Source: Candidatus Pacearchaeota archaeon (GTDB taxonomy: Archaea; Nanobdellota; Nanobdellia; Pacearchaeales; UBA284). Taken from it: DNA of 61,095 nt. Under the pieces are notes generated by a model. It saw nothing but the letters and a program-made list of their open reading frames with translations. It was not told the origin of the DNA and searched no databases. This document shows, piece by piece, positions 3,257-5,449 of the stretch. How positions within the stretch are numbered: the stretch's first letter is position 1; every line of letters starts with the position of its first letter. The stretch lies in NCBI GenBank assembly GCA_038894195.1, contig JAWAPZ010000003.1, forward strand, positions 1 through 61,095, given 5' to 3'. Both the position numbers and the translations under genes were made by a program.

Positions 3257-3378
3257 CGCCGGGACTGGGACTCGAACCCAGATATCCTTACGGAAACAGG
3301 TTTTTCATTTTTCTTCCAGAGGCTTCCTTTTAAGAAGGCTCTTAGCAAACCTGCGCCTTACCATTGGGCCATCCCGGC
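3257..3378 (-). tRNA. tRNA-Ser(GCU) with 40-nt intron at 37/38 (3303-3342)
   Basis: GCCGGGA/UCCCGGC acceptor, CAGGU/ACCUG anticodon stem, UUGCUA|A loop, long variable arm, G73; relaxed BHB (3 of 4 central pairs). Confidence 0.92.
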
Positions 3379-4713: not shown

Positions 4714-4942
4714 TCTTCTTCCTTTCGATTAATTTCTTCGCTCTTCCAAGCATCTCTCGTTTTAAGCCAATAAAACAACCTCCTGGTTTGCCAGCACAAT
4801 ATGTCGCTTCGCCTTCTTTAATTATTTCTGCAATTTCTGGAGATTCAATATCAATATGTGTAATTCTCGCACGACTTTTACCTTGCTCGTGCAAATAAAC
4901 TTTTGCCTTAATAAGATACTTGCCTTCACCTGGACCACTCAT
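4694..4942 (-). CDS. Small hypothetical protein
   Basis: 82-aa ORF, TATA-like element about 25 nt upstream, overlaps the next gene. Confidence 0.65.
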   Translation of the reverse strand: MSGPGEGKYLIKAKVYLHEQGKSRARITHIDIESPEIAEIIKEGEATYCAGKPGGCFIGLKREMLGRAKKLIERKKNAVENE

Positions 4943-4979
4943 GAAAAACTTAATAAGCCCATGTATTTAAAATTTATTA

Positions 4980-5165
4980 GGGGCTGTAGTATAACTTGGT
5001 TAGTATACGTGCCTAGGGAAGCATTCTTTCTTTTGAAAAAGAAAGAACCTTGGGAAGAAAGAAAATCAAAGTTAGAAAAAACTCTAGAACGCACGCGATC
5101 TGGGTTCAAAGAGCTTTCCTAAAGAGAAGCCTCGGAAAGAAAGCATGAGAATCCCAGCAGCCCCA
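4980..5165 (+). tRNA. tRNA-Pro (anticodon reads AGG) with introns at 37/38 (5019-5089) and 59/60 (5111-5151)
   Basis: GGGGCUG/CAGCCCC-A73 acceptor, D loop CUUGGUUA, CGUGC/GCACG anticodon stem, CUGGG/CCCAG T stem; both introns form BHB motifs; mature length 74 nt. Confidence 0.9.
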
Positions 5166-5202
5166 TCCGAAACTTTATAAAATTAGGAAATTTATTTTGA
5201 TT

Positions 5203-5449
5203 ATGAAAGTTGGAGCTTGCGGAATTTGTTGTAAAACTTGTGGTCCTTACACTAAAAAATCTGTCCTGGCTGTGAAAAATTCAAGAACATGTTGATTTCT
5301 TAAAGAACATAAATGCTAACTGTCCTGTTCTTGAATGTGCTGTCTGCAACAAGAAAGAAGTATGTTCTAAAGATTGTGAAAAGTTTCCATGTAAAAAATT
5401 TAAGGAATGCCTATCGGTTGATGGCTTGAAATTTTTAAAGGAAGATTAA
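5203..5449 (+). pseudogene. Cys-rich DUF3795-like protein, doubly frameshifted
   Basis: MKVGACGICCKTC..(K)ICPGCEK..CPVLECA..C..C..FPC restored by +1 A at 5254-5259 and at 5275-5279. Confidence 0.65.

Follow-up and report, generated by a model that had tools for sequence, protein, structure and literature searches.

The window analysed here, a stretch of 61,095 nucleotides from an archaeon of the Candidatus Pacearchaeota, contains a gene that is well supported by its sequence features as a functional tRNA-Pro with the mature anticodon AGG, predicted to be made and spliced. The gene occupies positions 4980-5165 of the forward strand and is composed of three exons and two introns, one of 71 nt at tRNA position 37/38 and one of 41 nt in the T-loop at position 59/60 (Table 1). 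The source genome was obtained from a hot-spring metagenome and belongs to a DPANN archaeon; it comprises 535 kb on 9 contigs, with 33% G+C and an estimated completeness of about 70%.

Gene structure and splicing

In the raw window the tRNA-Pro gene was detected neither by ARAGORN nor by Rfam. In a genome-wide screen, in which each BHB candidate was removed in silico before ARAGORN was run, removal of the T-loop intron led to a call of tRNA-Pro(agg) with a 71-nt intron, and the fully spliced 74-mer was recognised by ARAGORN as a standard cloverleaf of tRNA-Pro(agg) with the loop CUAGGGC. The anticodon stem is formed by CGUGC (5008-5012) pairing with GCACG (5091-5095), and its 5' strand is followed by C5013, U5014, A5015, G5016, G5017 and G5018. 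Prolyl-tRNA synthetase (ProRS) recognises its tRNA by G35 and G36, and also by G37, the pair G1-C72 and A73. All of these predicted identity elements are present in the window gene, namely G5016, G5017 and G5018 (G35, G36 and G37), G4980-C5164 (G1-C72) and A5165 (A73); the corresponding columns are also invariant in an alignment of 48 sequences, yet there they were preset by the pattern used for the scan. The acceptor and D arms are common to the Pro(AGG), Pro(UGG) and Pro(CGG) genes of the source genome.

Table 1 Features of the tRNA-Pro(AGG) gene and related loci. Plain coordinates refer to the window; C1, C2, C4 and C7 are contigs of the source genome (G000), and other G numbers in the text denote relatives.
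Feature	Position	Strand	Details
5' exon, tRNA positions 1-37	4980..5018	+	acceptor GGGGCUG, UA, D arm, anticodon stem CGUGC, C32 U33 A34 G35 G36 G37
A34, wobble base of anticodon AGG	5015	+	A in Logan contig and in 22 orthologs of the order; partner in the BHB central helix is U5085
71-nt intron at the canonical 37/38 site	5019..5089	+	strict hBHBh'; H 4/4, h 5, h' 2
Intron-family motif CCTTGGGAAGAAA inside the 37/38 intron	5048..5060	+	"second anticodon loop" of the UGG parse
Middle exon	5090..5110	+	C38, GCACG, 4-nt variable loop CGAU, T stem CUGGG, T-loop U54-A59 UUCAAA; aligned with intronless orthologs
41-nt T-loop intron at 59/60	5111..5151	+	relaxed hBH; H 4/4 UUCA:UGAG, h 5 = T stem, h' 0
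3' exon	5152..5165	+	U60, T stem CCCAG, acceptor CAGCCCC, discriminator A73
CCTYKGRAAGAAA motif site	3310		37/38 intron of Ser(GCU)
CCTYKGRAAGAAA motif site	5048		37/38 intron of Pro
CCTYKGRAAGAAA motif site	5130		59/60 intron of Pro
CCTYKGRAAGAAA motif site	C1:56205		37/38 intron of Arg(UCG)
tRNA-Pro(UGG)	C1:210984-211146	-	
tRNA-Pro(CGG)	C1:56610-56739		
tRNA-Leu(AAG)	C7:13783-13893	-	anticodon arm UACGG-CUAAGGA-CCGUA
Predicted tRNA splicing endonuclease	C2:44698-44958		PF01974, 98 bits
dCMP-deaminase-like ORF	C4:15119-15529	-	TAG at the catalytic Glu of the HAE motif (GAG to TAG)
Intact dCMP-deaminase-like paralog	C2:84318-84701		

Splice sites were assigned by the rule that each 3-nt bulge is preceded on its 5' side by the 4-bp central helix and is cut after its second base, and all candidates in the region were enumerated. 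The intron at 37/38 is delimited by a canonical BHB with cuts at 5018|5019 and 5089|5090. Its central helix pairs CUAG (5013-5016) with CUAG (5084-5087) in four of four Watson-Crick pairs and is accompanied by the bulges GGA and AAC; the 5-bp anticodon stem serves as the outer helix, and 2 bp form the inner one. The mature loop C-U-AGG-G-C that the first-pass annotation had derived from the best BHB, and with it A34 in an archaeal tRNA-Pro, is thus borne out by the BHB pairing and by ARAGORN. A predicted tRNA splicing endonuclease is encoded in the source genome and was found in four relatives too, and the encoded enzyme is predicted to be able to cut both introns. The metatranscriptome of the same study contained no contig over the tRNA-Pro locus.

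Homologous introns occupy the same 37/38 site in the relatives G023, G019 and G021, and the 59/60 intron shares homology with the introns that the Ser(GCU) and Arg(UCG) genes of the source genome carry at 37/38. A common pattern, CCT[CT][GT]G[GA]AAGAAA (motif CCTYKGRAAGAAA), occurs four times in the 535 kb and only in tRNA introns. Sequence similarity among these mutually alignable introns suggests that they form one family, which would have moved between tRNAs and between positions within them. The Ser(GCU) gene of the window (3257-3378, reverse strand) is called Phe(gaa) with an odd intron by ARAGORN; by eye it is a tRNA-Ser(GCU) with the loop UUGCUAA, a long variable arm and a 40-nt intron at 37/38.

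The first-pass annotation had also described a parse with two imperfect BHBs, in which introns at about 5013-5048 and 5055-5089 leave CUUGGG and hence a tRNA-Pro(UGG). Such a parse is tempting because CCTTGGGAAG (5048-5057) nearly repeats the exon-intron junction CCTAGGGAAG (5012-5021), sharing 9 of 10 bases and providing CUUGGG at 5049-5054, and the source genome does encode tRNAs that are interrupted immediately 5' of the anticodon, e.g. Thr(UGU) at C2:27087. However, a manual pairing check found no acceptable BHB for 5013-5048 or its shifted equivalents (best H 3/4, h 1, h' 0), and the second intron would introduce a U:U mismatch into a central helix that is perfect in the AGG reading. A separate gene encodes Pro(UGG) in the source genome, and orthologs with an uninterrupted anticodon loop share the exon through CUAGGG. 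The homologous introns of G023, G019 and G021 carry CCTTCGAG, CCTTCGGG and CCTTGGAG at the equivalent of 5048-5060 and read CUUCGA, CUUCGG and CUUGGA there; UGG is not conserved. In addition, the internal CCTTGGGAAG is the signature motif of the intron family and is found in three other tRNA introns of the source genome. The separate Pro(UGG) gene, the intronless orthologs, the unconserved decoy and the intron-family motif refute the UGG parse, which we regard as having a negligible chance of being correct, and by its sequence the "second anticodon loop" is best described as the signature of a family of related introns. The near-repeat of 10 bases had also raised the idea of alternative splicing that yields two isoacceptors from one gene, and this was rejected: the second copy is the intron-family motif, has no BHB and is not a Pro loop in the homologous introns.

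Distribution of A34 and the decoding set

An independent Logan contig (5269 nt) assembled from the source hot-spring run shows no differences to window positions 4900-5250 and has A at 5015. In contigs of co-occurring relatives from two runs, the match to the 5' exon extends through ...CCTAGGG without a flagged difference at 5015, and CGCACG... follows immediately. When the locus was compared by BLAST with 60 relatives, orthologs were found in many genera, mostly with an uninterrupted loop CUAGGG or UUAGGG. The ortholog of G003, which is without the anticodon-loop intron, is 100% identical to the 5' exon of the window through G37, and the spliced tRNA of the window matches orthologs with an uninterrupted anticodon loop nearly base for base. 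A34 is invariant among the AGG orthologs found by BLAST, for which this base was not used for selection.

A scan of about 186,000 species genomes with a pattern for intronless Pro(AGG) returned 110 stretches. Among the 80 matches listed of these 110, 59 are archaeal tRNA-Pro(AGG) with 47 distinct sequences, and the listed carriers are labelled Woese-, Pace-, Nano-, Parv- (including ARMAN-4), Micr-, Iain- and Aenigmatarchaeota; the Pro(AGG) genes of ARMAN-4 recovered in this way are alignable with the window tRNA. In 48 distinct archaeal Pro(AGG) sequences 96.6% of the stem cells are paired, compared with 72% in shuffles, and compensation supports all four stems, both sides having changed in 14 of the 20 pairs. 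The invariance of A34 in this alignment carries no weight because the search pattern fixed A34. Judged by these sequence comparisons, the archaeal Pro(AGG) genes are working tRNA genes. An error of assembly or base calling in place of a G, listed as an option by the first-pass annotation, is contradicted by the identical independent assembly, by the A in related strains of two runs, by the A in 22 orthologs of the order and by at least 59 intronless genes in public archaeal genomes, and we give it virtually no credence. A recent G34-to-A change private to this organism, likewise proposed there, does not fit the distribution, since AGG is common to most genera of the family, to several sister families and to other DPANN phyla.

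Some matches of the scan lie outside these groups. L046, L075 and L079 are Pro(AGG)-type genes on contigs labelled Hydrothermarchaeota and Methanosarcinales, which may represent non-DPANN carriers or mis-binned contigs; the copy labelled Methanosarcinales has mismatches in the acceptor stem. The listed matches also include 21 genomes of Actinomycetota (e.g. L030, L034, L040, L052, L086), among them the isolate Planomonospora venezuelensis. Their tRNA is a class-I tRNA of 73-74 nt with G1-G3/C70-C72, A73 and the anticodon UAG (Leu codon CUA), without a long variable arm. It combines a Leu anticodon with a Pro-like body, UAG standing in another register, and is unrelated to the archaeal Pro(AGG).

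The inventory of proline isoacceptors that the first-pass annotation had recommended gave AGG, UGG and CGG in the source genome. Pro(GGG) was not found in this genome of about 70% completeness, and near-complete members of the family likewise have AGG without GGG. When 301 genomes of the order were surveyed by pattern, Pro(AGG) was present in 22 and Pro(GGG) in 4; the pattern is sensitive, as the UGG control matched 261 of the 301 genomes. By this census, families f1-f8 (45 genomes) contain 19 of the 22 Pro(AGG) carriers, with two further ones from BLAST, and under the same pattern the large sister family f9 has mostly UGG with neither AGG nor GGG. In this lineage the AGG gene represents the archaeal Pro(GGG) isoacceptor after a G34-to-A transition.

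The second A34 tRNA of the source genome is a tRNA-Leu(AAG). Its anticodon arm is uninterrupted, and the only interruption of the gene is a hairpin insert of 26-27 nt in the D-loop with no clear BHB. A purine-34 Leu pattern, in which A or G was allowed, matched 25 of 61 genomes (the source genome and 60 relatives, f9 included), with AAG in all 25 and GAG in none. Leu(AAG) stands in the place of Leu(GAG) in the source organism. Six other four-codon boxes of the source genome keep G34, namely Ala GGC, Thr GGU, Ser GGA, Arg GCG, Gly GCC and Val GAC.

The remaining A34 calls that ARAGORN made in the source genome all stem from intron-containing genes parsed wrongly: Ser(aga) at C1:203558 is really Met/Ile2(CAU), Ile(aat) is really Gln(UUG), and Ser(aga) at C1:115395 is a Leu-like gene, apparently with three introns. 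Conflicting calls clustered at C1:205227-205485 were spurious. The Leu-like gene (C1:115395-115606, reverse strand) has a 59/60 intron and, in its anticodon region, a tandem ACTAGGA-ACTAGGA and a downstream CUUAAGA loop, and may be a Leu(UAA) with three introns. A tRNA-Ile(UAU) is present at C1:91914-92046 (reverse strand), as has been reported for ARMAN and for Nanoarchaeum, where it replaces the agmatidine route.

In the source genome proline is encoded by CCU (37%), CCC (7%), CCA (46%) and CCG (9%), with 342 CCC codons in about 139,000 codons. The ratio C/(C+U) is 0.16 for Pro and 0.15 for Leu compared with 0.14 and 0.17 for Ser and Val, which keep G34. Codon use gives no specific support to any reading of A34 and does not discriminate between them, because the drop in Pro and Leu is no greater than in Ser and Val.

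State of the wobble adenosine

The first-pass annotation had suggested a search for TadA/Tad2-like deaminases, and this search returned dCMP-deaminase-like ORFs or nothing. With PF00383, PF14437 and PF02137, no TadA/ADAT-like deaminase was found in the source genome, a MAG of about 70% completeness. Its only CDA-fold ORFs encode two small proteins with the dCMP-deaminase signature HAExNA ... PCxxC ... AGIKEV; for both, the best NCBIfam match is ComEB and the PDB matches are deoxycytidylate deaminases, and neither scores as TadA. One of the two is interrupted by TAG at the catalytic Glu and may be a pseudogene, a strain variant or subject to read-through; its paralog is intact. Four relatives with an ARAGORN-confirmed Pro(AGG), G008 (a single contig of 647,887 bp), G018, G029 and G026, gave no match to PF00383, PF14437 or PF02137, and 9 of the 25 Leu(AAG)-bearing genomes gave none to PF00383, in a search with Pfam models on MAGs that an enzyme of another fold would escape. 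A "transcriptomic" run of ARMAN-4 has A at position 34, but its contigs are covered evenly, in the manner of DNA, and rare variants are lost from contigs.

We propose that A34 probably remains an unmodified adenosine, and this reading becomes more likely because several AGG-bearing relatives gave no match to a CDA-fold deaminase. Unmodified A34 would read CCU well, by Watson-Crick pairing, and CCC only weakly; CCA and CCG would be read by Pro(UGG) and Pro(CGG), which would also back up CCC. The superwobble that the first-pass annotation had invoked is not needed, as the UGG and CGG isoacceptors are present. The change to A34 may have been tolerated because ProRS reads G35 and G36 and not position 34, because CCC is rare among the Pro codons, and because the two G:C pairs formed with CCN codons make the third position forgiving. 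C is poorly read by unmodified A34, and the continued use of CCC codons despite this poor reading counts against our proposal.

Alternatively, A34 could be converted to inosine by a not-yet-recognised archaeal enzyme, either of another fold or a diverged dCMP-deaminase-like protein, and the tRNA would in that case decode CCU, CCC and CCA, as I34 does in eukaryotes. Such an enzyme would be in keeping with the co-occurrence of ANN tRNAs and TadA/ADAT in bacteria and eukaryotes, with the use of both CCC and CUC codons and with the two small CDA-fold ORFs of the source genome. Moreover, Pro(AGG) and Leu(AAG) are a subset of the eukaryotic I34 set and were termed eukaryote-like by Fujishima et al. 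However, the resemblance of both ORFs to dCMP deaminases and the broken catalytic site of one of them speak against deamination of A34, as do the four AGG-bearing relatives without a CDA-fold or ADAT1-type match, one of them a single-contig genome, and the Leu(AAG) genomes that lack a PF00383 match. Furthermore, A34 is confined to Pro and Leu, and the six other four-codon boxes have G34. We consider formation of inosine a minority possibility, and the more specific proposal that A34 of both DPANN tRNAs, Pro(AGG) and Leu(AAG), is converted by a deaminase unrelated to TadA/ADAT quite unlikely. It is also conceivable that the AGG gene is a relic, decaying or dispensable, in which G changed to A by neutral drift under AT pressure and Pro(UGG) alone reads all CCN codons. 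Most f9 genomes have UGG without AGG or GGG, and therefore a purine-34 Pro tRNA can be lost in the order; the low G+C content of the source genome would also agree with such drift. Against a relic stand the preservation of the cloverleaf through many compensatory changes in the 48 distinct sequences from several phyla, the retention of spliceable BHBs in both introns, the persistence of the gene in genomes of 0.5-0.8 Mb in many genera, and the fixation of A34 among the AGG orthologs found by BLAST, where the base had not been selected for. We hold this explanation to be improbable.

Relation to known A34 tRNAs and implications

Reviews state that Archaea lack every ANN anticodon and have no known A34 deaminase. 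A survey of 2026 counted 3 ANN tRNAs among 10,517 archaeal tRNAs (GtRNAdb) and described archaea as being without ANN tRNAs or a wobble deaminase. Pro(AGG) and Leu(AAG) were nevertheless reported for ARMAN-4 and ARMAN-5 in 2011, with brief mention of the anticodons in the passage concerned (Fujishima et al. 2011, NAR 39:9695, PMC3239211). The first-pass statement that A34 tRNAs are essentially absent from archaea agrees with the reviews and overlooks this earlier report. The window gene is the ARMAN-4/-5 phenomenon in another DPANN lineage, known but largely overlooked, and its intron types are known as well. ARMAN-4 and ARMAN-5 (Parvarchaeota) resemble the organism studied here in having both A34 tRNAs without the synonymous G34 tRNAs, in being ultrasmall DPANN archaea and in having many unusual tRNA introns. 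In contrast to them, the present gene comes from a Pacearchaeota lineage of a hot spring and has two introns, at 37/38 and 59/60; moreover, fixation is shown here across many genera, and several carriers have no CDA-fold deaminase. The combination of a relaxed-BHB intron at 59/60 with a canonical 37/38 intron shows no difference of substance from ARMAN-2 pre-tRNAs, with their T-loop hBH introns at 59/60, and from archaeal multi-intron tRNAs.

In eukaryotes, Pro(AGG) and Leu(AAG) carry I34 formed by ADAT2/ADAT3, and as in the present case GNN gives way to ANN in the boxes CCN and CUN. However, eukaryotes use ANN in eight boxes and always together with ADAT, whereas here two boxes are concerned and no ADAT/TadA homolog was found. 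A natural replacement of GNN by ANN in four-codon boxes, as observed here, also occurs in certain bacteria, but unlike the source organism those bacteria have TadA. A precedent for our proposal of an unmodified A34 is provided by the proL G34A mutants of Salmonella and E. coli, in which Pro-tRNA(AGG) is unmodified and functional at little fitness cost, according to a preprint (Chen et al. 2002, as cited in bioRxiv 10.64898/2026.05.15.725136). These mutants have the same anticodon and a tRNA-Pro likewise derived from GGG; they are bacterial laboratory mutants, whereas the A34 described here is natural and fixed in an archaeal lineage.

In conclusion, our findings show that A34 tRNAs for Pro and Leu are fixed parts of the decoding set in a large group of ultrasmall archaea, several genomes of which have no deaminase of known fold. 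New in the present study are the fixation of Leu(AAG) across the order, the prevalence of AGG over GGG by roughly five to one, the absence of a known-fold deaminase from several carriers, and the explanation of the decoy motif. Standard tRNA finders miss the present gene, and censuses of DPANN tRNAs therefore under-count both introns and unusual anticodons. Should A34 be deaminated by an enzyme unrelated to TadA/ADAT, for which we see a rather slim prospect, this would be the first I34 decoding in Archaea and would have evolved independently. If unmodified A34 is in routine use, as we think probable, these archaea would naturally depart from the rule by which ANN tRNAs occur only alongside a wobble deaminase. 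They offer a natural system in which to ask whether unmodified A34 can serve normal translation, and they bear on the question why purifying selection removes A34 elsewhere.
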